Assembly: GCA_018674305.1 (NCBI GenBank)
Contig: JABHAL010000004.1
Location: 128,446 to 192,445 of the forward strand
From: Candidatus Falkowbacteria bacterium
GTDB taxonomy: Bacteria; Patescibacteriota; Patescibacteriia; UBA11705; JABHMO01
Reading direction: 5' to 3'
Length of the DNA stretch: 64,000 bases
Of this stretch, positions 3,929 to 61,633 are shown piece after piece (the stretch's first letter is position 1; each line of letters begins with the position of its first letter). The translations under genes were made by a program, and so were the position numbers. The notes under the pieces were generated by a model that saw only the letters and a program-made list of their open reading frames with translations, was not told where the DNA came from and did no database searches.

Positions 3929-4267
3929 TTATTTATTGGTTAATTTACTTACTCTTAAAATTTCATCAATCATTTGCTGTTTTTGTTTACTATTTTTTGT
4001 AGACATAGCCTTTTTAAAACAGCTATTTAAATGCCCCTCCATTAAAAGATGGTGAGCTGACTTCAAAAGACCAATAGCTGCTAAATTTTGTTGCATAATA
4101 TCTACGCAATACTTATCCTCCTCTGTCATCTTGGAAATTTTCGCCAAAAGACTTTTCGCTTTTTTAAAATTAATCAACGCTTTTTCTTTTTTACTCATAA
4201 TTTTTATTGTATATTGATTATTAGGTCTTTGATATTCACGACACCCCCACCCCAGGTGTGGGTACAT
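3929..4267 (-). CDS. csoR: CsoR/RcnR-family metal-sensing transcriptional repressor
   Basis: EEDKYCVDIMQQNLAAIGLLKSAHHLLMEGHLNSC matches the CsoR 'DRYCVDIL...LLEDH..HC' Cu-ligand signature (Cys, His, Cys). The true start may be an internal Met (MSKKEK). Confidence 0.7.
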   Translation of the reverse strand: MYPHLGWGCREYQRPNNQYTIKIMSKKEKALINFKKAKSLLAKISKMTEEDKYCVDIMQQNLAAIGLLKSAHHLLMEGHLNSCFKKAMSTKNSKQKQQMIDEILRVSKLTNK

Positions 4268-4312
4268 AATACTCCATTAAAAAATTACTGTCAACTACTA
4301 TTGGGGATAACC

Positions 4313-4342
4313 AAAAAAGAGGCCTTTCAGCCTCTTTTTTTA
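4313..4342. terminator. Bidirectional rho-independent terminator (AGAGGC-loop-GCCTCT, flanked by A-run and T-run)
   Basis: Hairpin read at 4318-4335 with T6 following and A6 preceding; lies between csoR and the small membrane ORF. Confidence 0.6.
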
Positions 4343-4350
4343 TCTACCTT

Positions 4351-4626
4351 TTATTTTTTACACTTATCGTCTTTACAGTGACATCCGACTAGCACCCAAA
4401 CTCCTGATACAATATATCCCCAAACATAGGCCTGGATCGCGCCCAAAATGAAACTGAGAGTATTCATTCCTTCAAAGCCGAAAAAGGACATCCTTAGCAT
4501 ACTTAAATGCATTGACTGTTCAACTGGTCGAATATAATACCAAAGAAAACACAACACGAACATTACTAGAAAAAATAAGCCAATATGGTTAGCACGTTTC
4601 CAATAAGAACATTTTCCACCCTTCAT
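4351..4626 (-). CDS. Small membrane protein, hypothetical
   Basis: 91 aa with two or three hydrophobic helices and a C-terminal HCKDDKCKK; no recognisable family. Confidence 0.4.
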   Translation of the reverse strand: MKGGKCSYWKRANHIGLFFLVMFVLCFLWYYIRPVEQSMHLSMLRMSFFGFEGMNTLSFILGAIQAYVWGYIVSGVWVLVGCHCKDDKCKK

Positions 4627-7716: not shown

Positions 7717-7926
7717 ACTCTGATAAAATTCTAAATCCTAAATTCTAAGCACTAAACAAATACAAAACTTTAAAATCCAAATTTTTGAATTTATTTAGAA
7801 TTTAAATATCGGGAAGTTCGAATATTCATCAAAAGGTATGCTGTTATTATAGCAAAAAAATAAACCAAATCAAAGGCTAGCTGTTGACAAATTATCATAA
7901 CTGCCAAGGCTTACACAATATATAAA

Positions 7927-13677: not shown

Positions 13678-15078
13678 TTACCCTTTTGTTGGATCAATTA
13701 AAAACTTGCGTAAATCTCGCCTTCCTATTATAACAGGATATTTCATATTCTCCCTCATGATAACAGAGGCATTCGAGTTAATTGACGTTCCTGCTAATTC
13801 TATTTTCAAAGGGATTTCCATTCGATAAGATGCGCCATGACTACTATAAGTTTTGGCAACCGCTACAATGTCTTCATGCTTTTCCAATTCTTTCCAAACT
13901 TTACGACTGCTCAAATCATCCAATTCCTGTTTTGTTAATACTCGTTTAATATCAAAAGTTTGATAATACTCAATAGCTTCACCATATCCCAACTGACGAG
14001 AGAAATTTTCATCTATAGAAGTAATTCCTGCTCCGGTATCCAACTTCGCTGAACACTCAATCCACTCGCCTTTTTTATTCTTTATTTTTATATCATTTAT
14101 TATACCTAAAATTTTCTTTCCTGTAATGCCTTCCACCTCATCTTCAATTTCACCACCAAACAATTCTTTAGCAACTTTGATCCCCTTGCTTACTGTTTTG
14201 ATTTTTAAACCTTCAACGCGGAGTAACCGATCTTTGAGTGATGCCAAATTAGCAATTTGAATTGACAGACCTGGGTGCGCATTTAATTCTAGAATAATAG
14301 GGCCCTTTTCTCTGTCAATGGCAATATCTACACCTGAATACCCCAATCCACAAACCATTGCAGCCTTGACTGACAATGCTAAAATTTCATCCCAATAAGG
14401 AATTTTTATTCCTCTCAAGGGTATTTTAATATCTGGCAAAGTCTCAATTAACCTGTCCGACTGGATAGCATTGGTGGTTACTCCAGTAGAAATATCAATT
14501 CCTACACAAATTCCACCTTGATGAAGATTGGCTTTGCCACGAGACGCCTTGGTCGGAAGTCTAAGCATCGCCATAACCGGAACTTTATTATAAATAATCA
14601 CTCTCACATCTGGAACCCCCTTATAACTATATAATTTAAATGCTGGATGAATTTTTAACCGCTCTTCAAAAAAAGCGGTGTCTGGTACATTAGTCTTAGA
14701 ATAATTACCGTCCAAAATGTTAGAAACTCTTGAAACAATATCTCGCAGACTAGCATCCTTATTGTTTGGCAAAACCCAATTACCATTTTTCTTTTTCCCA
14801 AAAGTTACTACTATCCCTTCACCACCTAATCCTCTATTGGGCTTCAAAACAAAACTTTTTGGTAGACTTGTCCAGTCAAACTTATAAAACTGTTTTCTGT
14901 TTTGTATCTTGGCAATAATTTTACAAACTGGTAATTCATGTTTTTCCAACAACTTTTTGGTCCTTAATTTATCATCAACCAAGGCCACCCGGTTTTTGGT
15001 GGCTGTAGGTCTTATAAATTTCAAATTCCTGGCGTTCATGCCAAGAATTAGTTTACTTTTTTGTAGCCAACTCAACAT
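13678..15078 (-). CDS. RimK-related ATP-grasp ligase fused to a C-terminal retropepsin-like (DTGA) aspartyl-protease-like domain
   Basis: N-terminal ~300 aa carry ATP-grasp motifs (GGEGIVV, ILELNAHPGL); C-terminal ~150 aa carry CSAKLDTGAGITSID (clan AA D-T-G-A). Overlaps the upstream 7TM gene by 26 nt. Confidence 0.65.
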   Translation of the reverse strand: MLSWLQKSKLILGMNARNLKFIRPTATKNRVALVDDKLRTKKLLEKHELPVCKIIAKIQNRKQFYKFDWTSLPKSFVLKPNRGLGGEGIVVTFGKKKNGNWVLPNNKDASLRDIVSRVSNILDGNYSKTNVPDTAFFEERLKIHPAFKLYSYKGVPDVRVIIYNKVPVMAMLRLPTKASRGKANLHQGGICVGIDISTGVTTNAIQSDRLIETLPDIKIPLRGIKIPYWDEILALSVKAAMVCGLGYSGVDIAIDREKGPIILELNAHPGLSIQIANLASLKDRLLRVEGLKIKTVSKGIKVAKELFGGEIEDEVEGITGKKILGIINDIKIKNKKGEWIECSAKLDTGAGITSIDENFSRQLGYGEAIEYYQTFDIKRVLTKQELDDLSSRKVWKELEKHEDIVAVAKTYSSHGASYRMEIPLKIELAGTSINSNASVIMRENMKYPVIIGRRDLRKFLIDPTKG

Positions 15079-16606
15079 TTTTTATAACCTTTCTAAAACG
15101 ATAATATTCAGTTAAACGTAAGCCAGTCCATTTTCCAATCAAAACATTCAAAATTATGGTACCTAAAATAAACTCTGGGTAACCAAGAATAAACGTTCTC
15201 ATAAACTGCCAACTGACCAGCCAATAACATATAATTGATAAAAATAAAGTCTCTATAACTAAAACAATTGCGCTTTTGTGACCTCTTTCAATTTGTACTG
15301 AAATAAACTTTTCAGTCAAGAGCACCATCACCAAAATAGGGAATATAGAAATTTCCAAAAGTCCCGTTTTGTTCATCGAGGCACCTAATAAAAACGCCAA
15401 GAAAATCGAAAAACTTACCATAGTCAAAACAATCGCCATTCTCGGTAAGTAAGACAACCGAACTTTGCGTGCCAACAAACGACTCACCGTTCCTACAATT
15501 AGTGTCATTAGAAACAATGCTAAACCATATTTTAAGCCTGTGACCAAAAAAGAAACTGCCACAATAGAAGGCATGTAAATACCCATAGCCTTGACTCCGA
15601 TAATTTGACGAAAAAAAGCAATCACCGTAGCGATGATTGGCAAAACTAAAATTAAATAAATTGTATTCAAGGCTACACCGTTATCAACCATGTAACTAAC
15701 AAAATACGAAACAAAATTTGACCACTTTAAACGATTAACATCCCGCTGAGTATGTAGGCCAACTAGCCGGTAATCAGTTTGTCCATATTTTAATCGATTT
15801 AGAAGGCCAGGAAAATCAGTCGTGGAAAATACTTCATTCATAGCGTCCGCCCGAGTCAAAACAATAAATTGTGGTGAAATTAAATTATAAACGCTCTGTC
15901 CCAAGCGAGCTGTAGCTGAAAAATTTTGATCAGTAATGACCACAAAGTATTTATTTGCAAAACCAAAACTATCTAGGTTACTTCCATTCTCGTCCGATGC
16001 CTTGGTCAAGTCTTGCGCGACTTCCAATAACGCATTAAGCCCAACATTGTTTTTTGTCCAAACTACAATTGAACTAGCTTGTCTGATGTCCTCTTTACTT
16101 TTTAATATTTTTTGAGCTAATTCTTTTTCTGCAATATAATCAACTTCATCTTTGACTTGAAAATCAACAACAAGAGTACCCTGTGCAGAAGCAATCGTTT
16201 GTACCGCTTGTAATTTTTCTGGCTCAAGATTTACGTCACTAATAAGAATCATTACATCCTTATCAACATTAACAATAATCTCATCCACTCCAGTCAATTG
16301 ATCTTCTCCTGCTACTGCCTTGAGCTCCAGCTTGACTCTATAAACACCGGAGTTGTCATAGGTATGTGTGACCTCTTTGCCATTTGCCCAATAACCATCA
16401 CCAAAATCCCAACGATATTCAACTTGGTCTACATTATTAGTAATTGAACCCAAAGCTGAGAAAATAACTTGGTGGTAAACAACTACGTTTCTATCCTGCC
16501 CAGCCACCGCTTTCAACAATGGAGTAGTATCAATTTCGTCTTGTGCCAACGCAAAACCTGGACAAAGTAGAATTGTTAATACCATTAATATAATAATTTT
16601 CTTCAT
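15053..16606 (-). CDS. Signal-peptide / PKD-like extracellular domain / C-terminal 7-TM membrane protein. Candidate '7TM plus inactive transglutaminase-like' partner of RimK-type ligases; that family assignment is recalled from the literature and not verified here.
   Basis: Sec signal MKKIIILMVLTILLCPGFALA; PKD motif YRWDFGDGYWANGKEVTHTYDNSGVYRV; ~290-aa extracellular region followed by seven hydrophobic helices (residues ~300-500). Confidence 0.55.
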   Translation of the reverse strand: MKKIIILMVLTILLCPGFALAQDEIDTTPLLKAVAGQDRNVVVYHQVIFSALGSITNNVDQVEYRWDFGDGYWANGKEVTHTYDNSGVYRVKLELKAVAGEDQLTGVDEIIVNVDKDVMILISDVNLEPEKLQAVQTIASAQGTLVVDFQVKDEVDYIAEKELAQKILKSKEDIRQASSIVVWTKNNVGLNALLEVAQDLTKASDENGSNLDSFGFANKYFVVITDQNFSATARLGQSVYNLISPQFIVLTRADAMNEVFSTTDFPGLLNRLKYGQTDYRLVGLHTQRDVNRLKWSNFVSYFVSYMVDNGVALNTIYLILVLPIIATVIAFFRQIIGVKAMGIYMPSIVAVSFLVTGLKYGLALFLMTLIVGTVSRLLARKVRLSYLPRMAIVLTMVSFSIFLAFLLGASMNKTGLLEISIFPILVMVLLTEKFISVQIERGHKSAIVLVIETLFLSIICYWLVSWQFMRTFILGYPEFILGTIILNVLIGKWTGLRLTEYYRFRKVIKNVELATKK

Positions 16607-16619
16607 ACTTTATAAACTT

Positions 16620-17111
16620 TTAACTTTTTAACTTATCTGAATTAGCTGCGCAGATAGCCACCGCTAAAGCATCGGCTGCGTCATCTGGCTTTGGAATCTT
16701 TTCTAAATTCAAAAACACTTTAACCATCTGCTGAACTTGCGCCTTTTCAGCTCGGCCATAACTAGTTATGGCTTGTTTAACCTGAAGAGGTGTAAACTCA
16801 ACAATAGGCTTGCCAGCTTCGACCGCTGTTAGCAAAATCACGCCTCGTGCCTGACCAACCTTAATCGCAGTTTTTACATTTTTAAAAAAGAAAAGTTCTT
16901 CAACTGCCACCAAATCTGGATTATATTTTTTAATTATTGATTTTAAATCTTTACTCAAGTATTTTAAACGCTGAACAAACTCCTCATCTTTATGGGTTTT
17001 GATAACTCCATAATCAACACATTCAAACACAGATCCTTTAACTTTAATCACGCCAAAACCAGTGAGGCCATAGCCTGGGTCGATTCCGAGAATTACTTTT
17101 TGTTTAGACAT
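16620..17111 (-). CDS. ruvC: Crossover junction endodeoxyribonuclease RuvC
   Basis: ILGIDPGYGLTGFGVI...VEELFF...GQARGV...ADALAVAICAA is collinear with E. coli RuvC including the catalytic acidic residues. Confidence 0.9.
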   Translation of the reverse strand: MSKQKVILGIDPGYGLTGFGVIKVKGSVFECVDYGVIKTHKDEEFVQRLKYLSKDLKSIIKKYNPDLVAVEELFFFKNVKTAIKVGQARGVILLTAVEAGKPIVEFTPLQVKQAITSYGRAEKAQVQQMVKVFLNLEKIPKPDDAADALAVAICAANSDKLKS

Positions 17112-17116
17112 AAGTT

Positions 17117-17145
17117 AAAAAAGAAAGAAAGAAATAAAGAAAAAA
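17117..17145. repeat. Left arm of ~29-bp inverted repeat, (AAGA)n-rich: aaaaaagaaagaaagaaataaagaaaaaa
   Basis: Near-perfect reverse complement of 17504-17536; the two arms exactly bracket the four-helix-bundle gene. Confidence 0.7.
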
Positions 17146-17511
17146 TCACTTTTTGCGAATACTCTTCTCTAAATTAGTAAGCTCGGTCCATAACATAGCT
17201 CCGATCTCTTTTTCCAGCTTAGTTCCCTCTTCATACTCCTCTTTCGAAATAAACTCTTCAACTAATGAGAATTCCAAAAGATAACTTGACTCCTTAAATG
17301 ACCCTAAACTGATTTCCAAATGATTAAGTCTTACCAATGTCTTTCTTCTGGCATAGCCTTCAATATAATTTAGTATTATTGACAAAGCTGCTCTTCGAAA
17401 CTGTGATACTGAGCTATACATTTCTTGCTTTGGAAAGTTTCTTGTTATCCTATAAACAAAATGAACATAATCATTCATCAATTTCTTCAGTTTTTCTTGA
17501 TATGCATTCAT
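17146..17511 (-). CDS. Four-helix-bundle protein (TIGR02436-like, the family first seen in 23S rRNA intervening sequences)
   Basis: 121 aa, all-helical, with the family hallmark NYIEGYARR (cf. NIAEGxGR) and an LEFSLVEE...EY tail. Confidence 0.6.
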   Translation of the reverse strand: MNAYQEKLKKLMNDYVHFVYRITRNFPKQEMYSSVSQFRRAALSIILNYIEGYARRKTLVRLNHLEISLGSFKESSYLLEFSLVEEFISKEEYEEGTKLEKEIGAMLWTELTNLEKSIRKK

Positions 17512-17536
17512 GTTTTTTTCTTTCTTTCTTTCTTTC
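17504..17536. repeat. Right arm of inverted repeat: tttttttctttctttctttctttctttctttttt
   Basis: Reverse complement of 17117-17145 (GAAA/TTTC tetranucleotide tracts). Confidence 0.7.
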
Positions 17537-17544
17537 TTTCTTTT

Positions 17545-18261
17545 TTACTCGATATTAGTATAAACGCCATTCACATCATCGTGAGCTTCAAGCAAATCCA
17601 TGATCCTCTCAATCTTCTCAGCCGATTGTTCATTAACTTCCTGCTTATCTTTAGCTACCCATTCCATTTCCGCATAATCAAGTTTAATGCTTTTATTTTC
17701 CAATTCTTTTCTTACCTTTTCAAAATTAGAAAAACTAGTCTCAATTGTTAGACCACCTTCTTCTTCCTCCACATCATCAGCGCCTAAATCAATCACTTCC
17801 ATCATTAATTCATCTTTATCTTCCAGTTTAGCTAAATCGACACGAATAACTCCTTTGTGTTCAAACATCCATTTAACAGAGTTTTGAGCTCCCAGTGAAC
17901 CTCCGTTTTTGGTAAGAATAGCTTTCACTTCTGGCGTAGTTCGATTTTTATTATCGGTCACTCCTTCAATCAATAAAGGCATTCCCCCTGGACCATAAGC
18001 TTCATACAAAACCTCCTCAATAACCGCACCACCAAGTTCACCGGTCCCACGTTTGATTGCATTTTCAATTTTGTCCTTGGGCATGTTGCTAGCCTTGGCC
18101 TTGTCAATTGCTATCTTTAAGGAAAAATTCATATCTGGATCGCCACCACCCCGAGCCGCGACCGAAATATTTCTTGAAAGTTTTGTAAATAAATTACCGC
18201 GAGCTGCATCAGTTGCTCCTTTTTGACGATGAATTTTGTCCCACTTAGAATGTCCGCTCAT
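17545..18261 (-). CDS. yebC: YebC/PmpR-family DNA-binding transcriptional regulator
   Basis: MSGHSKWDKIHRQKGATDAARGNLFTKL...NMPKDKIENAIKRG is the canonical YebC N-terminus. Confidence 0.9.
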   Translation of the reverse strand: MSGHSKWDKIHRQKGATDAARGNLFTKLSRNISVAARGGGDPDMNFSLKIAIDKAKASNMPKDKIENAIKRGTGELGGAVIEEVLYEAYGPGGMPLLIEGVTDNKNRTTPEVKAILTKNGGSLGAQNSVKWMFEHKGVIRVDLAKLEDKDELMMEVIDLGADDVEEEEGGLTIETSFSNFEKVRKELENKSIKLDYAEMEWVAKDKQEVNEQSAEKIERIMDLLEAHDDVNGVYTNIE

Positions 18262-18483
18262 AAATGAAAGAAGGCTAAATAGGGCGAAACAAGATTATAT
18301 GGTAATAAGATCGTCATTAATATCATTACCCTGTAAACCTGCTCCCTTATCTAGCCTCGTATAGCCTTATTCTACAATAATTTTCGCATTTTGAGCATAT
18401 CAAATCTGAAAGAAAAAATCAAGGGTTTTTGTTATTTCCAAAACCTAAAAATCCTTTTAATATTTTTACAACCAAAATTCTTT

Positions 18484-18512
18484 TTGACATTTTTATTGAA
18501 AAATGTGCATAA
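18484..18512 (+). promoter_or_regulatory. Candidate sigma70-like promoter for the PGI/PMI gene: TTGACA, 17 nt, GCATAA (weak -10)
   Basis: -35 consensus hexamer read at 18484-18489; the -10 is poor, so low confidence. Confidence 0.25.
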
Positions 18513-18636
18513 CTTAGTTGCAACATTAAATCACATTTGCTAAGTTAGTAATAAGTTAACTGAAATTAAACTACGAACAAAAAAACAAAAGAACACCACG
18601 CTGTTCACTGTTCATTTCTTCGTTAGTTATTCTTTT

Positions 18637-19641
18637 ATGCAGGCACTTCGTGAACAATTTGATTCACAAAATCTTTATCAAGTGATTGCCGACTTACCAA
18701 AGCAGTTTACAACTGCCTTTACTGAAACAGATCTTAGCATTGACAAGAAAACCACCAAAATAGTTTTTTGTGGTATGGGAGGCTCTGCCTTACCAGCCAA
18801 TCTTTTGAAAACTTTTTTAGCAACAGCTAAAACAAATTTTAATATTCCTTTTAAGATCAACCGCGACTATTCTCTACCACAGGTGGTAGATGAAAACTGG
18901 TGCGGTTTTTTTGATTCTTATTCAGGAAATACAGAAGAGACCTTATCTGCAATAGAAGAAGCAGAAACCAAAGGCCTAAAACAAATTGTAGTTCTGGCAC
19001 ATGGCGGAAAGCTAGAAAAAATAGCTCAAGAAAAAGGATATAAGTTCATTAAAATTCCGGACACCAAACAACCACGTATGGCCTACGGCTACGTAATGGG
19101 CGCTCTACTGAAAGTTTTAGCCAATTCCGAGCTGGTAGACCTTAATTTCGCAGAATTAACCTCTGACGTGGAAAAAGCTTTATCTTCTGAGAAAGAAATG
19201 CAACTTCAGGCTGAGAAGTTAGCAAAATCTTTGCAAAATAAAATTCCAGTTATCTACACTTCCAACATCTGGAAGTATGTGGCGATGGTCTGGAAAATTA
19301 ATTTCAACGAAAATACCAAGACCCAAAGTTTTTGGAATGCTTTTCCAGAATTAAACCACAATGAAATGGTAGGCTACACCAATATTATTGGCAACTACAA
19401 GATAATTATATTAAAAGATCTAGAAGAACATGCTCACATTCAAAAAAGAATGGATGTTTTCCAGAAAGTACTTGCTGACAAGCTGGACATTGAAATAATC
19501 GATATGCAATCTGGCTCAGCTTTTTACAAACTGTTAAGTACTTTACTACTTGGCCAATGGACTTCCTACTATTTAGCCCTAATCAATAAAGTTGATCCTA
19601 CGCCTGTTGATTTAGTCGAAGAGTTCAAGAAACTGATTTAA
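18637..19641 (+). CDS. Bifunctional phosphoglucose/phosphomannose isomerase (archaeal-type SIS-domain PGI/PMI)
   Basis: SIS-domain motif CGMGGSALPANLL; ~330-aa two-SIS architecture typical of the TIGR02128-like family. Confidence 0.7.
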   Translation: MQALREQFDSQNLYQVIADLPKQFTTAFTETDLSIDKKTTKIVFCGMGGSALPANLLKTFLATAKTNFNIPFKINRDYSLPQVVDENWCGFFDSYSGNTEETLSAIEEAETKGLKQIVVLAHGGKLEKIAQEKGYKFIKIPDTKQPRMAYGYVMGALLKVLANSELVDLNFAELTSDVEKALSSEKEMQLQAEKLAKSLQNKIPVIYTSNIWKYVAMVWKINFNENTKTQSFWNAFPELNHNEMVGYTNIIGNYKIIILKDLEEHAHIQKRMDVFQKVLADKLDIEIIDMQSGSAFYKLLSTLLLGQWTSYYLALINKVDPTPVDLVEEFKKLI

Positions 19642-19784
19642 TAATTGTTTTCTTGCTTTCTTGCTTTTTTTCTTTTTTTCCAATCTAAGTAATTTATTCA
19701 CTCAAAAGTATCTAACCAAGCCGCTCTTTAATATAACCTTTGTGTCGGCTACGGGGATAAATGTCCCTTGATGTGCTGGCAAAC

Positions 19785-19837: not shown

Positions 19838-20242
19838 TTAATTTGCGACTGTAGTAGCTGACGACAAATTGGTCACTACAAAACTGGAGATTGCGTAAGC
19901 AGATAAGACCAACGCTAAACCAATAATAGCATTAATCAACCACTGTTTAGCTTTTTTCACTTGATCTTCATTTCCACCAGCGGTCATCCATAGAAATCCA
20001 GCATAAACAATAATCACTAGAACAATCACTCCAAGTAAGGTCAAAACGATCTTAACAATGTTACCGATTATACCAACCAAGTCTGTTCCGTCTTTGTCTT
20101 GACCAAAGTCTTTAGCAAAAAACTCCATATTTCCTTCAGCATCCATAGGAGTTAAGCCTTGATCTAATATGTCTTGAGCTCCAATAGCTCCTGGTAATAG
20201 CAATAAAGATAATATTGCTAAAATTGGCATTACTTTTTTCAT
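19838..20242 (-). CDS. Secreted two-helix membrane protein, VirB2/TrbC-pilin-like topology, paralog 1 of 9
   Basis: Sec signal (AIGA|QD); variable ~40-aa region; conserved core IVKIVLTLLGVIVLVIIVYAGFLWMTAGGNEDQVKKAKQWLINAIIGLALVLSAYAI. Confidence 0.5.
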   Translation of the reverse strand: MKKVMPILAILSLLLLPGAIGAQDILDQGLTPMDAEGNMEFFAKDFGQDKDGTDLVGIIGNIVKIVLTLLGVIVLVIIVYAGFLWMTAGGNEDQVKKAKQWLINAIIGLALVLSAYAISSFVVTNLSSATTVAN

Positions 20243-20274
20243 AAGTTTTCTATATTTAATTATTTATTATCTTA

Positions 20275-20661
20275 TTATTTAGTTGTTGCTGATGCAAGAT
20301 TTTGCACTACGAAACTGGAGATTGCATAAGCTGCTAAAATCAAGGCCAGGCCTATTACCGCATTTATTAACCATTGTTTCGATTTTTTTACTTGGTCCTC
20401 ATTACCGCCGGCCGTCATCCAGAGAAAACCTGCGTAAATGATTATTACTAGCACTACGACTCCCAGTAATGTTAGCACAATTTTGACGACATTACCAACA
20501 ATCTCAACTAAGTTTTTATCACTACTTGCATACCCCGCTTGAGTTTGAAAGTCGGTTAAACCCTTTGCTGTAGTTTTAGTTAAATCAACATCCATTGCCA
20601 TAGTCATTGTTGGCATAACCAATAAAGAACATAGCGTTAATATCACAAACAATTTTTTCAT
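20275..20661 (-). CDS. Pilin-like paralog 2 of 9
   Basis: Signal peptide plus core YAGFLWMTAGGNEDQVKKSKQWLINAVIGLALILAAYAI. Confidence 0.5.
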   Translation of the reverse strand: MKKLFVILTLCSLLVMPTMTMAMDVDLTKTTAKGLTDFQTQAGYASSDKNLVEIVGNVVKIVLTLLGVVVLVIIIYAGFLWMTAGGNEDQVKKSKQWLINAVIGLALILAAYAISSFVVQNLASATTK

Positions 20662-20687
20662 ACTAATTTTAATTATTTAAAATCTCC

Positions 20688-21065
20688 TTAAGTTGTAGTC
20701 GCTGCGAATAGATAACTAACTGCGAAATCAGCAATTGCATAGGCTGCTAAAATTAACGCCAGACCAATTACTGCATTTTTTAACCACTGTTTAGCTTTTT
20801 TCACTTGATCTTCATTTCCACCAGCACTCATCCACAAAAATCCAGCATAAACAATAATTACAACAGTTATTATGCCGACCAATGTTAATACTATCTTGAT
20901 GATATTACCAACGATATCTACTAAAGTTCCCTTACCTGTATATCCAGTTTTGTCTTTGAATGTTTCCATTTCCTTGACAGGATCACCACCAATTGTTGCT
21001 GCTGTAGCTACCAGGGGCATAGCAAACAGAGAACACAAAGTTAAAATTACAATTAAATTTTTCAT
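20688..21065 (-). CDS. Pilin-like paralog 3 of 9
   Basis: Signal peptide plus YAGFLWMSAGGNEDQVKKAKQWLKNAVIGLALILAAYAI. Confidence 0.5.
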   Translation of the reverse strand: MKNLIVILTLCSLFAMPLVATAATIGGDPVKEMETFKDKTGYTGKGTLVDIVGNIIKIVLTLVGIITVVIIVYAGFLWMSAGGNEDQVKKAKQWLKNAVIGLALILAAYAIADFAVSYLFAATTT

Positions 21066-21081
21066 ATTGATTTGATTTATT

Positions 21082-21489
21082 TTAGGTGGTTGTTGCTGTA
21101 ACTAAATAATCAACCGCAAAGTAGGCGATCGCATAAGCTGCCAAAGTTATAGCTAAACCAATTACAGCATTAGTCAACATTTGCTTTGCTTTTTTTACCT
21201 GGTCTTCGTTGCCACCTGCGGTCATCCACTGTACACCGCCCCAAACAACTAATATTACCATGATAATACCAAGTAAAGTTAAAATAATTTTAATTATACT
21301 ACCAACAATTGTAGGTAAATCTGCTTTTGGTTTATCTGCACCGTGTAAACCTTTACCTACATTACCCAATTCACCAAGTGGTCCATCCGCAGCCAAAGCA
21401 ATTCCACCACACAGAACAAAACTGAAACAGATTACTAACAAAAATGTTACTACTTTTAATGTAAATGGATTTTGACGTAAAAAATTCAT
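21082..21489 (-). CDS. Pilin-like paralog 4 of 9
   Basis: Signal peptide plus WGGVQWMTAGGNEDQVKKAKQMLTNAVIGLAITLAAYAI. Confidence 0.5.
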   Translation of the reverse strand: MNFLRQNPFTLKVVTFLLVICFSFVLCGGIALAADGPLGELGNVGKGLHGADKPKADLPTIVGSIIKIILTLLGIIMVILVVWGGVQWMTAGGNEDQVKKAKQMLTNAVIGLAITLAAYAIAYFAVDYLVTATTT

Positions 21490-21531
21490 AATTTTTTTGT
21501 ATAGAGTAATAAGTAAAGAGTAACAAGTGAT

Positions 21532-21568
21532 TACCTTTTACTTTTTACCTTTTACTTTTTACTTTATT
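21532..21568. repeat. 14-bp tandem repeat (taccttttactttt) x ~2.6 in the 77-bp gap upstream of paralog 4
   Basis: Read directly: taccttttactttt taccttttactttt tactttatt. Confidence 0.6.
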
Positions 21569-21971
21569 AAACTCCAGCTGCTGTACTAAGCTTCTCCACA
21601 AAATAATAAGCAATTGCATAAGCACCCATAGTTACGGCCATACCTAGCACACCTTCAATCAGCATACTTCGAGCTTTTTTCACCTGATCAGCATTTCCAC
21701 CAGCGGTCATCCAGGTGATTCCACCATAAACAACTATGATCACAAAAATAATTCCTAAAATTGAAGTTACAACTTTCAAAGCTTTACCAATTACACCCGC
21801 TGGATCAGCGGCTGTAGTACTAAATCCGGCGCCAGGCGCAGCAGCATCAAGACCTGCCTTGGCTTTGTCAGTAGCACCACTAGCAAAAACATTATTGGTG
21901 ATTATAGTTAAATTAAAAACCAATAAACTGATAATGATTGAAAATAATACTAATTTTTTAAGCATATTCAA
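21567..21971 (-). CDS. Pilin-like paralog 5 of 9
   Basis: Signal peptide plus YGGITWMTAGGNADQVKKARSMLIEGVLGMAVTMGAYAI. Confidence 0.5.
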   Translation of the reverse strand: MNMLKKLVLFSIIISLLVFNLTIITNNVFASGATDKAKAGLDAAAPGAGFSTTAADPAGVIGKALKVVTSILGIIFVIIVVYGGITWMTAGGNADQVKKARSMLIEGVLGMAVTMGAYAIAYYFVEKLSTAAGV

Positions 21972-21994
21972 TATAAATTAAAACCTCTAATAAA

Positions 21995-22378
21995 CTAAAG
22001 AGTCCCGGAAATCTTAGCAATTACATATGCAGTTAATTGGTATGCCATTAAGGTAACAACTAAACCAATCGCCGCATGGATCAAAGTTTTTCTTGCCTTT
22101 TCTACATTTTGCGGAGTACCTCCAGCGGTCATCCACATAATTCCGCCGTAAACAATCATAATTAGGAAAGCAATACTAACGTAGCCAAAAAAAACTCCAA
22201 TGTACTGACCAATAACCTTTTCAATTGTATTATCAGCTTTAGGCAATAAGCCCGGTTTTTCAGCTGCTCCTTTTAAACCATCCGCAAAATCGCCAGCTAT
22301 AGCTAAATTAGGAATAGCTAAAAAACAAATTCCGATCAATAATATAAAAACAATTAAAAAATATGAGTTTTTTTTCAT
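21995..22378 (-). CDS. Pilin-like paralog 6 of 9
   Basis: Signal peptide plus YGGIMWMTAGGTPQNVEKARKTLIHAAIGLVVTLMAY. Confidence 0.45.
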   Translation of the reverse strand: MKKNSYFLIVFILLIGICFLAIPNLAIAGDFADGLKGAAEKPGLLPKADNTIEKVIGQYIGVFFGYVSIAFLIMIVYGGIMWMTAGGTPQNVEKARKTLIHAAIGLVVTLMAYQLTAYVIAKISGTL

Positions 22379-22472
22379 AGAATCTTATTTCTAAAAAGCT
22401 TTCTTCTCATTAATTAACAATGTGTATTATTAACTAATGAGAAGGGCAGATAAATCTGCCCTTTAAACTTTT

Positions 22473-22877
22473 TTATTCGGTTGTTGCAGTAACTAGATTA
22501 GTGATTACAAAACTGGTAATCGCGTATGCGCTTAGAATAATTGCTACGCCTATTATACCAGAAACAATGTATTTCCTCGCTTCTTGTACTTTCTCATCGC
22601 TACCACCAGCTGTCATATATTTAAAGCCTCCGATCAAAACAATTACGATCGCGATCACACCCAAAAATCCAAGTGCAACTTTAATTATAGCTCCAATAGT
22701 TTCCTTCAAATCTTTATTTCCTAAATTTGTGTTGTCACCAACTGCGCCAATCCCAAATGGGTCTGGTGCTGGATCCTCAAGCGCCACGGCTGGTAAAGCA
22801 AATGTTGCAAGCATGAAAATTACTAGGAAAAGTCCCGCGAACATTTTGATTTTGTTTGTGTCTACGTACATGTGCAT
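22473..22877 (-). CDS. Pilin-like paralog 7 of 9
   Basis: Signal peptide plus IGGFKYMTAGGSDEKVQEARKYIVSGIIGVAIILSAYAI. Confidence 0.45.
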   Translation of the reverse strand: MHMYVDTNKIKMFAGLFLVIFMLATFALPAVALEDPAPDPFGIGAVGDNTNLGNKDLKETIGAIIKVALGFLGVIAIVIVLIGGFKYMTAGGSDEKVQEARKYIVSGIIGVAIILSAYAITSFVITNLVTATTE

Positions 22878-27456: not shown

Positions 27457-28860
27457 CTAAATTTTACAAAATTCAATTTTTGTTTTGCTACGAGAAACCA
27501 GCCAACCAACTGCAAACAAGAGCCACCAAAAAACACTTAAATCATTTTTAAAATACGGCACGTCAACCAAACCATGAACTAGAATTGCAACCATGACTGC
27601 AATTAGAACTAAGTATATTTTCTGATTTTCTCTATTTTTAACCTTCCAATAATTCATCAAAAATTTCATTCCCAAAACCAACACCACCAACATGCCAAAC
27701 AAACCTATCTCACTCCAGAAGTTTAAAATAATATTATGTGGATACATATAGATCTCAGTTGGCTGCCAAGCTTGCTTTTTGAATTCTTCATTATACAAAA
27801 CCTTTCTTAGCCACTCAGGATCTTGTTTATCTTCAATCCAAATCCCCTCTGCGTGATAAGGTTCGATAGTAGTTTGATAGCCAGCTAATCCTGCACCAAA
27901 AACTTCTCTCCCGTCCGTTAACATAGTCCACGTTTCTTTCCATTGCTGAACGCGAATTTGACCTGAATGATCAGACAGAGAAATTTTATCAACAGCGTAA
28001 GTTCGTGCTTGAGGAATAAAAGAGACGAGCAAGACGAGCGAAACAAGCGAAACGAGCGAAATAAGTCGCAATCTTTTATTTGGGTAAAATAATCCTAGAA
28101 AAATAACTGCTGCCAAGATTCCGAACAACGCTCCTTCGGAGCGAGCGAAGATAATCGCGGATAATGGCACTAAAACACAAAAGCACGAAAGCACAAAAAC
28201 CCAACTGTACAGACGCGATTTATCGCGTCTCCCTTTTCCAAAAAAAACAATAATCAAACCTAAAAACAAAATAACAATCGGAGCTAAATACAAACCAACC
28301 GCATTTGGAAATCCATACCACGAAACAACTCGACGCGTAGCTTCAGCTGCCCAGAATGAGTTTTCAATTCCAATTGGCCAGAACTTCTGAATAATTGCCG
28401 GGATAGCAACCACCAAAGCGGAAGCACCAAGAGCCCCAGTAATTAATGAAACCAACTTTACCCCTGACTTTAGTCGGGGAATATTTATTAATACTACAAA
28501 AAATAAAATTGGTTCGATAAAATAAGCTTTCCAAATTCCAAGCGCTACCGTTCTATCTGGTGAAACAAAAACACTAACTGTCGCAAAAAACAAAAATATC
28601 AAAATCCACCACTTGTAATTACTTAAAGTTACGGATTTGTAATATTTGTAAAAATTTGCAGCATTTGTAACTTTCTTAATCAACCAAACAACAAACAGTA
28701 ACAAAATCATCACTTCCAGCAAAGTCATTGGTAAACCAAAAACCGAAAATCGAATCAAATATGTTGGTAAACAAAATATAACGAAGGCCACTGCCCAGTC
28801 AATTCGTTTCCATGCCAATATGGCAAATAACACACAATAAATTGTCAGCAAATAAATCAT
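27457..28860 (-). CDS. O-antigen ligase / Wzy-like polytopic membrane protein
   Basis: 467 aa, ~12 TM helices with a large external loop; sits beside GT4 and flippase genes; contains an internal GC-rich short tandem repeat (28015-28065). Confidence 0.55.
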   Translation of the reverse strand: MIYLLTIYCVLFAILAWKRIDWAVAFVIFCLPTYLIRFSVFGLPMTLLEVMILLLFVVWLIKKVTNAANFYKYYKSVTLSNYKWWILIFLFFATVSVFVSPDRTVALGIWKAYFIEPILFFVVLINIPRLKSGVKLVSLITGALGASALVVAIPAIIQKFWPIGIENSFWAAEATRRVVSWYGFPNAVGLYLAPIVILFLGLIIVFFGKGRRDKSRLYSWVFVLSCFCVLVPLSAIIFARSEGALFGILAAVIFLGLFYPNKRLRLISLVSLVSLVLLVSFIPQARTYAVDKISLSDHSGQIRVQQWKETWTMLTDGREVFGAGLAGYQTTIEPYHAEGIWIEDKQDPEWLRKVLYNEEFKKQAWQPTEIYMYPHNIILNFWSEIGLFGMLVVLVLGMKFLMNYWKVKNRENQKIYLVLIAVMVAILVHGLVDVPYFKNDLSVFWWLLFAVGWLVSRSKTKIEFCKI

Positions 28861-55753: not shown

Positions 55754-56446
55754 TTAACCCCAACCCTTCTCTGTTAAGGCATTGCGAGCGGCATCTTCTT
55801 GCGCTTCCTGTTTACTTAATCCAGTCCCACTGGAGACTAATTCATTTTTCAAATATGCGCCAACTTCAAATGTTTTTGAATGGTCAGGTCCAGTTTCTGA
55901 TAGTACTTTATAGTTCGGAGTAATACCAACTTTTTCTTGAGCAAGTTCTTGAAAATTACTTTTTGGGTCAAGGTACAATTTTTTGTCTAATATCTCAGGT
56001 AGTTTTGAAAGAATAAATCTTTCTATGAAAATTTTTGCCTGATCCCAACCTTGATCAAGATAAATCGCTCCGATTATAGATTCCATAGCATTCGCTAAAA
56101 TATATTGTCGAGCTTTGCCAGTATCTTTTTGTTCACCTCGACTCAGAAACATGCAACTTTCAAAATCAATTTCATTGGCGATAGTGGATAGCATTTTACT
56201 ATTGACCAAGCTAGCGCGCCAATTGGTTAGCTCTCCTTCTGGATTGGGATAATTATTATATAGGTTTTCAGTTACAACTAATTCCAAAACTGCATCACCT
56301 AAAAACTCTAATCTTTCGTTATGGTCCAACTCAAAACTTTTGTGTTCATTTAGATATGACCGGTGGACAAAAGCTTGTTTTAACAAGTCCTTGTTTTTGA
56401 ACTTGGTTCCAATCTTTTTCTCGATTTTAGAAAGTTTTTTTTCCAT
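55754..56446 (-). CDS. rnc: Ribonuclease III
   Basis: RNase III signature ERLEFLGDAVLELVV; C-terminal dsRBD. Confidence 0.9.
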   Translation of the reverse strand: MEKKLSKIEKKIGTKFKNKDLLKQAFVHRSYLNEHKSFELDHNERLEFLGDAVLELVVTENLYNNYPNPEGELTNWRASLVNSKMLSTIANEIDFESCMFLSRGEQKDTGKARQYILANAMESIIGAIYLDQGWDQAKIFIERFILSKLPEILDKKLYLDPKSNFQELAQEKVGITPNYKVLSETGPDHSKTFEVGAYLKNELVSSGTGLSKQEAQEDAARNALTEKGWG

Positions 56447-61093: not shown

Positions 61094-61633
61094 TTATAGT
61101 ATTTTAATAACAAGTATAAATCCAAAGAAGACAACGAGTATAATGGCCACGACCCAGCCAAGAAGCGATTTGCCAGTAGAAGTGACTGGTGGGTTGTTCT
61201 TGTTGTTGTAGTAATCTCTAGTTTCTAGTTCTTTTTTTACAAACTGTTCTGGGTTAACACAATCATTTACTGGCAAGGAACAAAAGTCAATATTATTGCG
61301 AACATCATTTTCTCGATAACCTAAAATTGCCCGCTCTCCAATAAAAGTTGTAGGAACTGTGGAAATGCCTACTTCGTAAACAGATGCAAATTCCTGAAAT
61401 TTTGAAAAATATTCAGGATTTGATTTTAGATCAAACTCGTGAACTTTTATTTCTGGATACTCTTGTTTCAGGGTTTCCAATAGTGAAAGAATTTTAGCAC
61501 AGTATGGACAACTTTTCTGTGTGAAAGTATAAACATCTATTGTTTTTTCAGTATCAGCGGCGATGGTTGTGGATAAGGGCAAAAAAACAATAAAGAAAAA
61601 AAGCAATAAAGAAAACACTATTTTATTTTGCAT
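61094..61633 (-). CDS. Secreted, membrane-anchored thioredoxin-fold (glutaredoxin-like CPYC) protein
   Basis: Signal peptide; CPYC active-site motif (KSCPYCAKIL); C-terminal TM anchor. Confidence 0.6.
   Translation of the reverse strand: MQNKIVFSLLLFFFIVFLPLSTTIAADTEKTIDVYTFTQKSCPYCAKILSLLETLKQEYPEIKVHEFDLKSNPEYFSKFQEFASVYEVGISTVPTTFIGERAILGYRENDVRNNIDFCSLPVNDCVNPEQFVKKELETRDYYNNKNNPPVTSTGKSLLGWVVAIILVVFFGFILVIKIL

Follow-up and report, generated by a model that had tools for sequence, protein, structure and literature searches.

What is a gene of a protein family known from the intervening sequences (IVSs) of 23S rRNA genes doing between yebC and ruvC, two ordinary protein-coding genes, and what are the repeats that enclose it? 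The question is raised by a 434 bp insert in a 64 kb stretch of contig JABHAL010000004.1 (hereafter the window), from a genome of Candidatus Falkowbacteria (Patescibacteria, also known as the candidate phyla radiation or CPR; G+C content 36.5%). The insert carries a single gene, for a four-helix-bundle (4HB) protein, between two arms of inverted repeat sequence. It is an IVS-type element outside rRNA genes, and its identity and insertion history are nearly certain. The account that we consider the more probable is that it is a selfish cassette, transcribed by read-through from the host operon, whose arms pair in the RNA and enclose the open reading frame (ORF).

Anatomy of the insert

The gene order on the minus strand is yebC, 4HB gene, ruvC (Table 1). 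An earlier note on this DNA had described the insert as a 121-aa 4HB gene flanked by near-perfect inverted repeats, which would form a stem around the ORF in RNA, and gene order, Pfam domains and the sequence LNYIEGYARRK in the protein all bear out the first part of this description. The protein matches Pfam family PF05635 (23S_rRNA_IVP; E 1.5e-21, 77 bits, cutoff 33.8) and TIGR02436 (77.8 bits, cutoff 24), and its AlphaFold2 model consists of four helices (pLDDT 97.6). It has 786 homologues, and Patescibacteria/CPR is the label of every one that comes with a source name. Across 27 homologues of roughly 60% identity, 27 columns are invariant, and the ORF is therefore under purifying selection. 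A scan of IMG/VR returned only two distant 4HB loci, so phages are no obvious vector for this subfamily, and a PADLOC search for membership in a defence system gave no match for the protein.

Foldseek places the pentameric 2GSC (TM 0.88) and 2RLD first and the Avd protein 4DWL (TM ~0.78) after them, which raises the alternative that the gene encodes the Avd accessory protein of a diversity-generating retroelement (DGR). The similarity in fold extends to 8UB7, and the protein weakly matches bAvd with 33.9 bits, the DGR Avd equivalog with 34.6 bits, and also the PHROG Avd family. These scores, however, lie under the respective cutoffs (40 for bAvd, 80 for the DivGenRetAVD equivalog), the immediate neighbours are yebC and ruvC, and the genes called in the 5 kb to each side of the 4HB gene include no reverse transcriptase (RT). 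The alternative is effectively refuted.

The two spacers around the 4HB gene, of 33-34 nt, consist of little else than (TTTC)n and (AAAG)n on the plus strand, for which TRF reports (AAAG)x5.8 and (TTTC)x7.8. They contain an inverted repeat with arms of 30 nt each (17116-17145 and 17518-17547) that are 93% complementary, as the earlier note had recognised. There is thus a short tandem repeat, (GAAA)x7.8, directly 5' of the start codon, with a period of 4/8 rather than 7, and the yebC stop codon TAA (17547-17545) overlaps the beginning of this arm. When the 5' and 3' flanks of all 69 window ORFs of at least 90 aa are compared, those of the 4HB ORF form the strongest duplex (-41.1 kcal/mol; runner-up -31.5). 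The arms are paired in both predicted folds of a 461-nt transcript segment, that of minimum free energy (MFE) and the centroid. The stem, of about 40 bp, surrounds the ORF and takes in the final codons of yebC as well as the ruvC AUG, which comes to lie in the stem base. The proposed RNA stem is accordingly recovered by both predictions, and terminal inverted repeats predicted to form a long stem (at least ~20-28 bp) around the ORF are a feature of the insert.

The earlier note had itself offered the alternative that the repeats are ordinary low-complexity promoter sequence with no conservation of pairing. That they arose by chance would suit an AT-rich genome, and other short A-rich arrays do occur in the window, but this explanation is refuted on several grounds. 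The motif GAAAGAAAGAAA (not more than one mismatch) has 12 matches in 64 kb, compared with 2.3 expected, a count that none of 100 shuffles reached, and 10 of the 12 fall within the two cassette arms. The pairing of the 4HB flanks is the best of the 69 ORFs, and the same design recurs in 80 loci (see below) with units specific to each locus, GC-rich hosts having GC-rich units. The arms were also considered as an intrinsic terminator or a sigma-70 promoter and rejected, as the arm spacers have no such sites: no promoter-like site was found inside either spacer, and no terminator-like site in the region 16400-18700.

The flanks of the insert are yebC and ruvC rather than a 23S or 16S rRNA helix, and the 64 kb contain no rRNA gene (Rfam), no second 4HB gene and no further (GAAA)n pair. 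An rnc gene, noted earlier at 55754, is confirmed by its Pfam domains.

Table 1. Components of the yebC-ruvC insert, the rnc gene of the window, and inserts found at the same junction elsewhere (L numbers are loci from other assemblies).
Feature	Position or locus	Strand	Description
yebC (TACO1/YebC family)	17545..18261	-	upstream host gene; Pfam PF20772 and PF01709; from ORF list
Cassette 5' arm	17512..17547	-	mRNA sense UAAAAAAGAAAGAAAGAAAGAAAGAAAGAAAAAAAC; purine-rich tandem (GAAA)n, abuts the 4HB ATG
4HB gene, 121 aa	17146..17511	-	PF05635 23S_rRNA_IVP; TIGR02436
Cassette 3' arm	17112..17145	-	mRNA sense UUUUUUCUUUAUUUCUUUCUUUCUUUUUUAACUU; pyrimidine-rich reverse complement of the 5' arm, up to the ruvC ATG
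ruvC	16620..17111	-	downstream host gene; Pfam PF02075
rnc (RNase III)	55754..56446	-	Pfam Ribonucleas_3_3, Ribonuclease_3, dsrm; ERLEFLGDAVL signature
4HB cassette at yebC/ruvC junction	L016, L088		(AAGAAAGC)-type arms
4HB cassette at yebC/ruvC junction	L092		(CACTGAAG)n arms
Different 4HB subfamily at yebC/ruvC junction	L139		25-nt unit x8
ORF-less hairpins at yebC/ruvC junction	L113, L117, L122, L131, L098, L149		inverted 7/8-nt arrays
HNH endonuclease genes at yebC/ruvC junction	L108, L167

A family of operon cassettes in Patescibacteria

A scan of one genome per GTDB species returned 524 relatives, the best 80 of which (L008-L087) were analysed. (An initial automated search for arrays discarded the (TTTC)n arm for its low complexity; its counts are too low and should not be relied on.) In three homologous loci that were examined first the contexts all differ, namely response regulator/4HB/T2SSE, unknown gene/4HB/response regulator, and ManC/4HB/mraZ, yet the flanks are of the same kind: a purine-rich array, e.g. 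(AAGAAAAC AAGAAAGC)n, extends to the ATG, and the reverse complement of this array comes after the stop codon. Almost all of the 80 loci have about four tandem units of 7 or 8 nt (median 4.3) on the 5' side of the ORF and a complementary array on the 3' side, and the period is identical in both arms in 39 of the 40 loci with clear arrays. The sequence of the unit varies from locus to locus, even within one genome (e.g. CAAGAAAA, CATTAAAA, CATGAAA, CATGTAA, CACATAT, CTGGAAC). That the arms are tandem 7-8-nt arrays common to the whole family, and not a peculiarity of this locus, had been missed in the earlier note. Since related cassettes share this theme, the (GAAA)n arms of the window are a decayed member, derived from an 8-nt unit such as AAGAAAGC, which is the unit that related cassettes carry. 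In one window arm AAGAAAGC has become AAGAAAGA, and the other arm carries the matching change.

The two arms of a cassette belong together. Their median duplex energy is -30.3 kcal/mol, compared with -19.0 for arms of different loci (Mann-Whitney p = 1.5e-20), -19.0 when the 3' arm is reversed and -15.9 kcal/mol when it is shuffled. Of the 4HB flanks, 61-69% carry arrays, whereas for the flanks of the other genes in these loci the figure is 8-9.5%, and over several hundred kb of loci the only other ORFs with paired arrays on both sides are two PF05635 genes of a different subfamily. Nearly all homologous loci are flanked by protein-coding genes (a called ORF on both sides in 76 of 81), and in 63 of 76 loci the 4HB gene and the genes on either side of it all point the same way. 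The distance from the upstream stop codon to the ATG has a median of 40 nt, and that from the 4HB stop codon to the next start a median of 45 nt, so that the arms make up essentially all of the intergenic space.

The arms also have a polarity relative to the ORF, with purines prevailing in the 5' arm in 47 of 53 loci and pyrimidines in the 3' arm in 46 of 55, and this polarity is the main argument that they matter at the level of RNA or translation. In GC-richer hosts the 5' units contain GGAG or GAGG and the units of the 3' arm CTCC, so that the arrays look like ribosome-binding-like motifs that may be masked by their complement.

Several of the cassettes analysed have features of their own. 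Two 5 kb loci each hold two 4HB cassettes (L024, ~2457-2844 and ~3997-4369; L084, ~32-409 and ~2466-2906), the 5' array of L004 is so long that the scaffold is interrupted by Ns, and several cassettes (L027, L038, L069, L077, L082) immediately precede type IV pilin genes that encode GFTLIEL at the N-terminus.

The period of the arms, 7 or 8 nt, tracks the clade of the protein. All of 65 nearest neighbours agree in period (shuffled mean 38.7, maximum 53), and the N-terminal motif differs accordingly, with ..YQ.KL.. in proteins from 8-nt cassettes and ..(Y/F)HE.. in those from 7-nt cassettes. TRAP is a ring protein that reads tandem units, and by analogy the arrays could be putative binding sites for the cassette's own protein, whose pentamer ring would read some 4-5 units and either auto-regulate its own or downstream translation, or protect or present the stem. 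The median of 4.3 units per arm is in keeping with such a ring, as is the co-segregation of period with clades that differ in their N-terminal motif; the solved relatives 2GSC and 2RLD are homopentamers, and Avd is found within an RNA-protein complex (8UB7). Only the period follows the clade, however, the unit sequence being essentially uncorrelated with protein identity (Spearman 0.02), and descent together with slippage could by themselves conserve a period. Binding would also leave the need for a complementary 3' arm unexplained, and we regard this explanation as unlikely.

Occupied and empty junctions, and how the cassette may move

The earlier note had proposed a mobile, IVS-like cassette able to land outside rRNA operons and had named an ancient fixed feature as the alternative. 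A scan of metagenomes with YebC supplied 80 loci for a comparison of the yebC/ruvC junction. It is empty in the closest relatives (L089, L090 and L091; YebC identity 58-67%), with 0-6 nt from the yebC stop codon to the ruvC ATG, and ruvC lies within ~170 nt of yebC in at least 34 loci. Elsewhere the junction is otherwise occupied (Table 1), and the alternative of an ancient fixed feature fails. The distribution among related lineages is sporadic, and the cassettes that do share the junction are not each other's closest kin. The 4HB protein of the window has 69-73% identity to proteins of cassettes located elsewhere (L008, L003) and 57-62% to those at the same junction, and the protein of L092 is closest to those of L010 and L023, which are both located elsewhere. 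It follows that several lineages colonised the junction independently or replaced one another.

The inserts at this junction differ in state and kind. In L088 (3291-3653) the 4HB ORF has an in-frame stop at codon 61, the remainder being conserved, and the 5' arm is degenerate; the stop reflects either a recent pseudogene or a sequencing error. The subfamily in L139 (537-1171) has the sequence LIVWQKS...IPSNLAEG and an upstream 25-nt unit, aggtgttagggtttagcaagttctt, in ~8 copies with a partial complement downstream, and the length of the arm unit is therefore not always 7-8 nt. The ORF-less spacers are 100-170 nt long, e.g. (GTTTTAG)x6 versus (CCTAAyA)x4 with -48 kcal/mol, and their 5' arm is not purine-rich. 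In L108 (1711-2533) and L167 (3016-3810) an ORF resembling an HNH endonuclease (HH..CH motifs) takes the place of the 4HB cassette. The junction has the look of a hot spot for selfish inserts in general.

Two copies within one Moraniibacteriota genome define the unit of duplication. L063 and L076, which are 11.5 kb apart, are 92.8% identical over 484 nt and have unrelated flanks; the similarity begins inside the 5' array and stops at the last unit of the 3' array, so the duplicating unit is arm, ORF and arm.

The same design is found in a genuine rRNA IVS. On plasmid p2 of Azospirillum lipoferum (L175) a 4HB ORF lies inside a large-subunit rRNA gene (Rfam, 2137 bits), between inverted tandem heptamers, (CAGAGGA CGGATGA)n versus (TCCGTCC TCTGTCT)n. 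In the 23S IVS of Coxiella burnetii a 28-bp stem arises from the terminal inverted repeats and is cut by RNase III, and the GACAGAT heptamer stands in 3-4 tandem copies immediately upstream of the ORF (PMC4990558). 23S_rRNA_IVP ORFs are also known from insertions in CPR 16S and 23S rRNA (PMC11270868), and the gene has been reported between co-directional cas genes, e.g. cmr2/IVP/cmr3 (PMC3936711). Cyanobacterial plasmids carry 4HB cassettes in the contexts cas6/4HB/cas4 (L171, 1207-1566), cas10/4HB/cmr3 (L172, 1189-1545) and parA-like/4HB/parB (L173, 1195-1557). The heptamer arms of cyanobacteria include (GGAGATA)n, (GGGAAGA)n, (GGGAACA)n and (CAGGAGT)n, and their duplexes reach -61 kcal/mol. 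Upstream of the L171 ORF are 14 direct (AAAGCTA) units, and the downstream array of this locus is direct, not inverted. A Gemmatirosa copy has (GGAGGGC)n versus (GCCCTCC)n and one on a viral contig has (GGAGTCC)n. Inverted heptamer arms occur in 9 of 12 loci from outside the CPR and a heptamer array adjoins the ORF in 11 of the 12; the design is thus a hallmark of the whole family and not an artefact of AT-rich genomes. The varied contexts, the polymorphism of the junction and the design of the Azospirillum IVS all support the proposal of a mobile IVS-like cassette, and the link between 23S_rRNA_IVP and CRISPR loci in the literature may be simply the result of selfish elements entering operons.

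How the host tolerates such an insert can be pictured as follows. The cassette unit consists of a 5' arm, the 4HB ORF and a 3' arm, the arms being inverted arrays of about four tandem 7-8-nt units. It leaves no space for its own promoter or terminator and would be transcribed by read-through from the host operon. The arms would then pair in the transcript as a 30-40-bp stem enclosing the ORF, and the base of this stem would juxtapose the yebC stop codon and the ruvC start codon, which we propose is why the host operon tolerates the insertion. The purine-rich 5' arm is probably also the ribosome-loading region of the 4HB ORF, and would be masked by the 3' arm when the two are paired. By analogy with 23S rRNA IVSs of the same architecture the stem is a plausible RNase III substrate, and cleavage would remove the cassette RNA from the polycistronic message. 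The organism encodes RNase III (the rnc gene of the window, the product of which is a candidate trans-acting nuclease for the stem) and the predicted stem is long enough as a substrate; for the cleavage step itself, the balance falls slightly short of even. Pairing in vivo, the mechanism of movement and the role of the protein are what we infer from the comparisons above.

That the stem is instead a domesticated host regulator, gating translation of ruvC or read-through into it, with the 4HB gene incidental, an alternative that the earlier note had raised in the form of a stem controlling ruvC read-through, would fit the predicted sequestration of the ruvC AUG opposite the yebC stop codon, and also the fixation of the cassette, which is identical in three samples. 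The closest relatives, however, function with almost no gap between the two genes, the same type of cassette stands beside dozens of unrelated genes, and the 4HB ORF is strongly conserved (27 invariant columns). A regulator of ruvC is for these reasons very unlikely.

Several observations weigh against a selfish cassette that acts through pairing in RNA. The window segment is base-for-base identical in two further samples (L001, L002), so that no ongoing mobility is visible in this species, and the stability of the whole-segment fold is not unusual (z = -1.5). Some loci have direct or one-sided arrays (L171, L180, L009). Complementarity of the arms is just ~86% over a median of 29 nt, and they look like two arrays drawn from one unit family rather than strictly compensating partners; homogenisation of quasi-palindromes at the DNA level could maintain such a pattern. 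The arms have no RNA-specific signature, G:U-compatible transitions numbering 52 in the sense and 60 in the antisense direction, and the energies of sense and antisense duplexes are equal. Neither occupied and empty junctions nor the paralogous copies L063 and L076 reveal a target-site duplication, and no transposase or recombinase was seen in or beside the cassettes, the sole ORF of which is the 4HB gene.

Part of this evidence would be better explained if the arms acted in DNA, as terminal inverted repeats or hairpin ends for transposition, cassette exchange or template switching, with the RNA stem as a by-product. The duplicating unit ends exactly at the outer edges of the arms, one and the same junction shows presence and absence, and the ORF-less array hairpins look like non-autonomous derivatives; neither G:U usage nor duplex energy distinguishes the strands. 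The missing transposase or recombinase and the lack of an evident target-site duplication tell against DNA ends just as they do against a mobile RNA element, and of the marks of a DNA transposon or miniature inverted-repeat transposable element (MITE) only the terminal inverted repeats are present, whereas target-site duplication and a cis transposase are not, although a transposase might act in trans. If the arms were strand-symmetric, moreover, co-orientation with host genes and a purine-rich 5' arm would not be expected, and the rRNA IVS relatives are documented as RNA-level elements (PMC4990558). Action in DNA is consequently rather unlikely, if somewhat less so than a protein-binding function of the units, and pairing in RNA remains the explanation that we prefer. 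Action in DNA, reading of the arrays by the pentameric protein and regulation of ruvC could nevertheless hold side by side. As for movement, homologous exchange, either via the arms or with ORF-less array hairpins as targets, seems to us likelier than a dedicated transposase.

A broader view would unite PF05635 genes and inverted 7-8-nt arrays as one ancient, transposase-free class of mobile element, comprising 23S IVSs, the CRISPR-associated IVPs of cyanobacteria and the operon cassettes of Patescibacteria, in which the period would be read by the pentameric protein, each subunit taking one unit, and the protein would aid in moving or processing the element. This view is tentative and, on balance, doubtful. 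It might also cover ORF-less array hairpins and many intergenic heptamer arrays of the STRR or TAACTGA kind; the STRR sequences of cyanobacteria were reportedly described by Mazel et al. in 1990 as intergenic heptanucleotide tandem repeats.

Other arrays and repeats occur in the window. An ORF-less hairpin of inverted 7-nt arrays (21499-21565; MFE -16.5 kcal/mol, z = -2.3), in mRNA sense (AAAGTAA/AAGGTAA)n and then (TTGTTAC/TCTTTAC)n, lies between two pilin genes and looks like a gene-less version of the cassette. The surrounding region (19838-22877, minus strand) has seven tandem paralogous genes for proteins of ~125-135 aa, six of which have a T4SS_pilin/TrbC-like Pfam domain in the identical locus L001. 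Directly after the pgi stop codon is an 8-nt array, (TTGCTTTC)n then (CTTTTTTT)n (19645-19680), and a short (AACAAAAA)x2.5 array (18576-18595) precedes the pgi start by ~40 nt; the two arrays may be solo arms, or remnants of arms, on either side of a housekeeping gene. The divergent intergenic region between yebC and pgi also has a 27-nt tandem repeat in ~2.4 copies (18427-18495). An 8-nt array of (TAAAAAGT) type (x3.5, 16607-16634) overlaps the ruvC stop codon and reaches the ATG of the next gene, an ORF of PKD/7TM-transglutaminase-like type (16606..15053), so that the 4HB gene is not alone in this genome in having an A-rich 8-nt array ahead of its start codon. The remaining arrays are AAATTCT with a partial inverted partner (7726-7804), GCACAAAA x4 inside a long minus-strand ORF (28167-28198) and GCAAAAAA x4.6 (61579-61615).

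Significance and relation to known elements

IVSs have been known since 1990 and have been regarded as a peculiarity of rRNA genes; their origin, their movement and the role of their ORF are standing questions. The ~90 related loci have the same design in ordinary operons of Patescibacteria (hundreds of genomes), Cyanobacteria (cas, par) and Gemmatimonadota, and on a viral contig. Inverted arrays of 7-8-nt units provide a diagnostic signature that can be searched for, and an annotation rule for the very common 'four helix bundle protein' gene. Insertion of a selfish element into operons is also a simpler account of the reported association with CRISPR loci, the 4HB family becomes linked to the unexplained tandem heptamer arrays, and the old questions about IVSs become testable in cultivable hosts such as Nostoc (N. 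punctiforme, L178) and Picosynechococcus (PCC 7003, L172), which have homologous cassettes. If it is true that such stems are cut in mRNAs, they would represent a widespread and unannotated layer of operon processing. A literature search, with subscription journals largely outside its scope, returned no description of array-flanked 4HB operon cassettes, of their presence/absence polymorphism or of ORF-less derivatives, and the array-flanked 4HB cassette of protein-coding operons is apparently undescribed.

Among known systems, Avd of DGRs shares the four-helix bundle (TM ~0.78) and, distantly, a Pfam clan with the cassette protein, which differs in scoring under the Avd cutoffs and in having no RT or template and variable repeats (TR/VR) nearby. 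MITEs and REPIN hairpins resemble the cassette in being short, intergenic and bounded by inverted repeats, and in occurring as ORF-less hairpins. The cassette, in contrast, comes without an associated transposase or RAYT and without a visible target-site duplication, its arms are tandem arrays of short units whose sequence varies from one copy to the next, and its cargo is always a 4HB gene.

The TAACTGA heptanucleotide repeats, intergenic direct repeats of Beggiatoaceae and cyanobacteria whose function is unexplained, are like the cassette arms in consisting of 7-nt tandem units upstream of start codons and in their patchy spread (PMC4679880). They are direct, have no partner array and no link to a 4HB gene, whereas the cassette arrays are inverted pairs around one gene family. 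The IVP genes of CRISPR-cas loci and CPR rRNA belong to the same family as the cassette gene and also lie between co-directional genes, and L171 and L172 reproduce the cas contexts. The papers on these genes (PMC3936711, PMC11270868) treat the gene as a possible Cas partner or merely list it; flanking inverted arrays, presence/absence polymorphism and ORF-less derivatives are not described in them.

The closest likeness in architecture is to the 23S rRNA IVSs themselves (Leptospira, Coxiella burnetii helix 45, Brucella, Azospirillum). Like the cassette, these have an ORF of the PF05635/TIGR02436 'S23p' family, terminal inverted repeats forming a ~28-40-bp stem around it, heptamer-type tandem repeats directly 5' of the start codon, a sporadic distribution and transcription that depends on the host. 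The cassette differs in being located between protein-coding genes instead of in an rRNA helix, and in a unit period of 8 (here 4/8) instead of 7. Cleavage by RNase III, which is documented for the Coxiella IVS, would in the case of the cassette take place in an mRNA, where it would separate cistrons and not fragment the ribosome.

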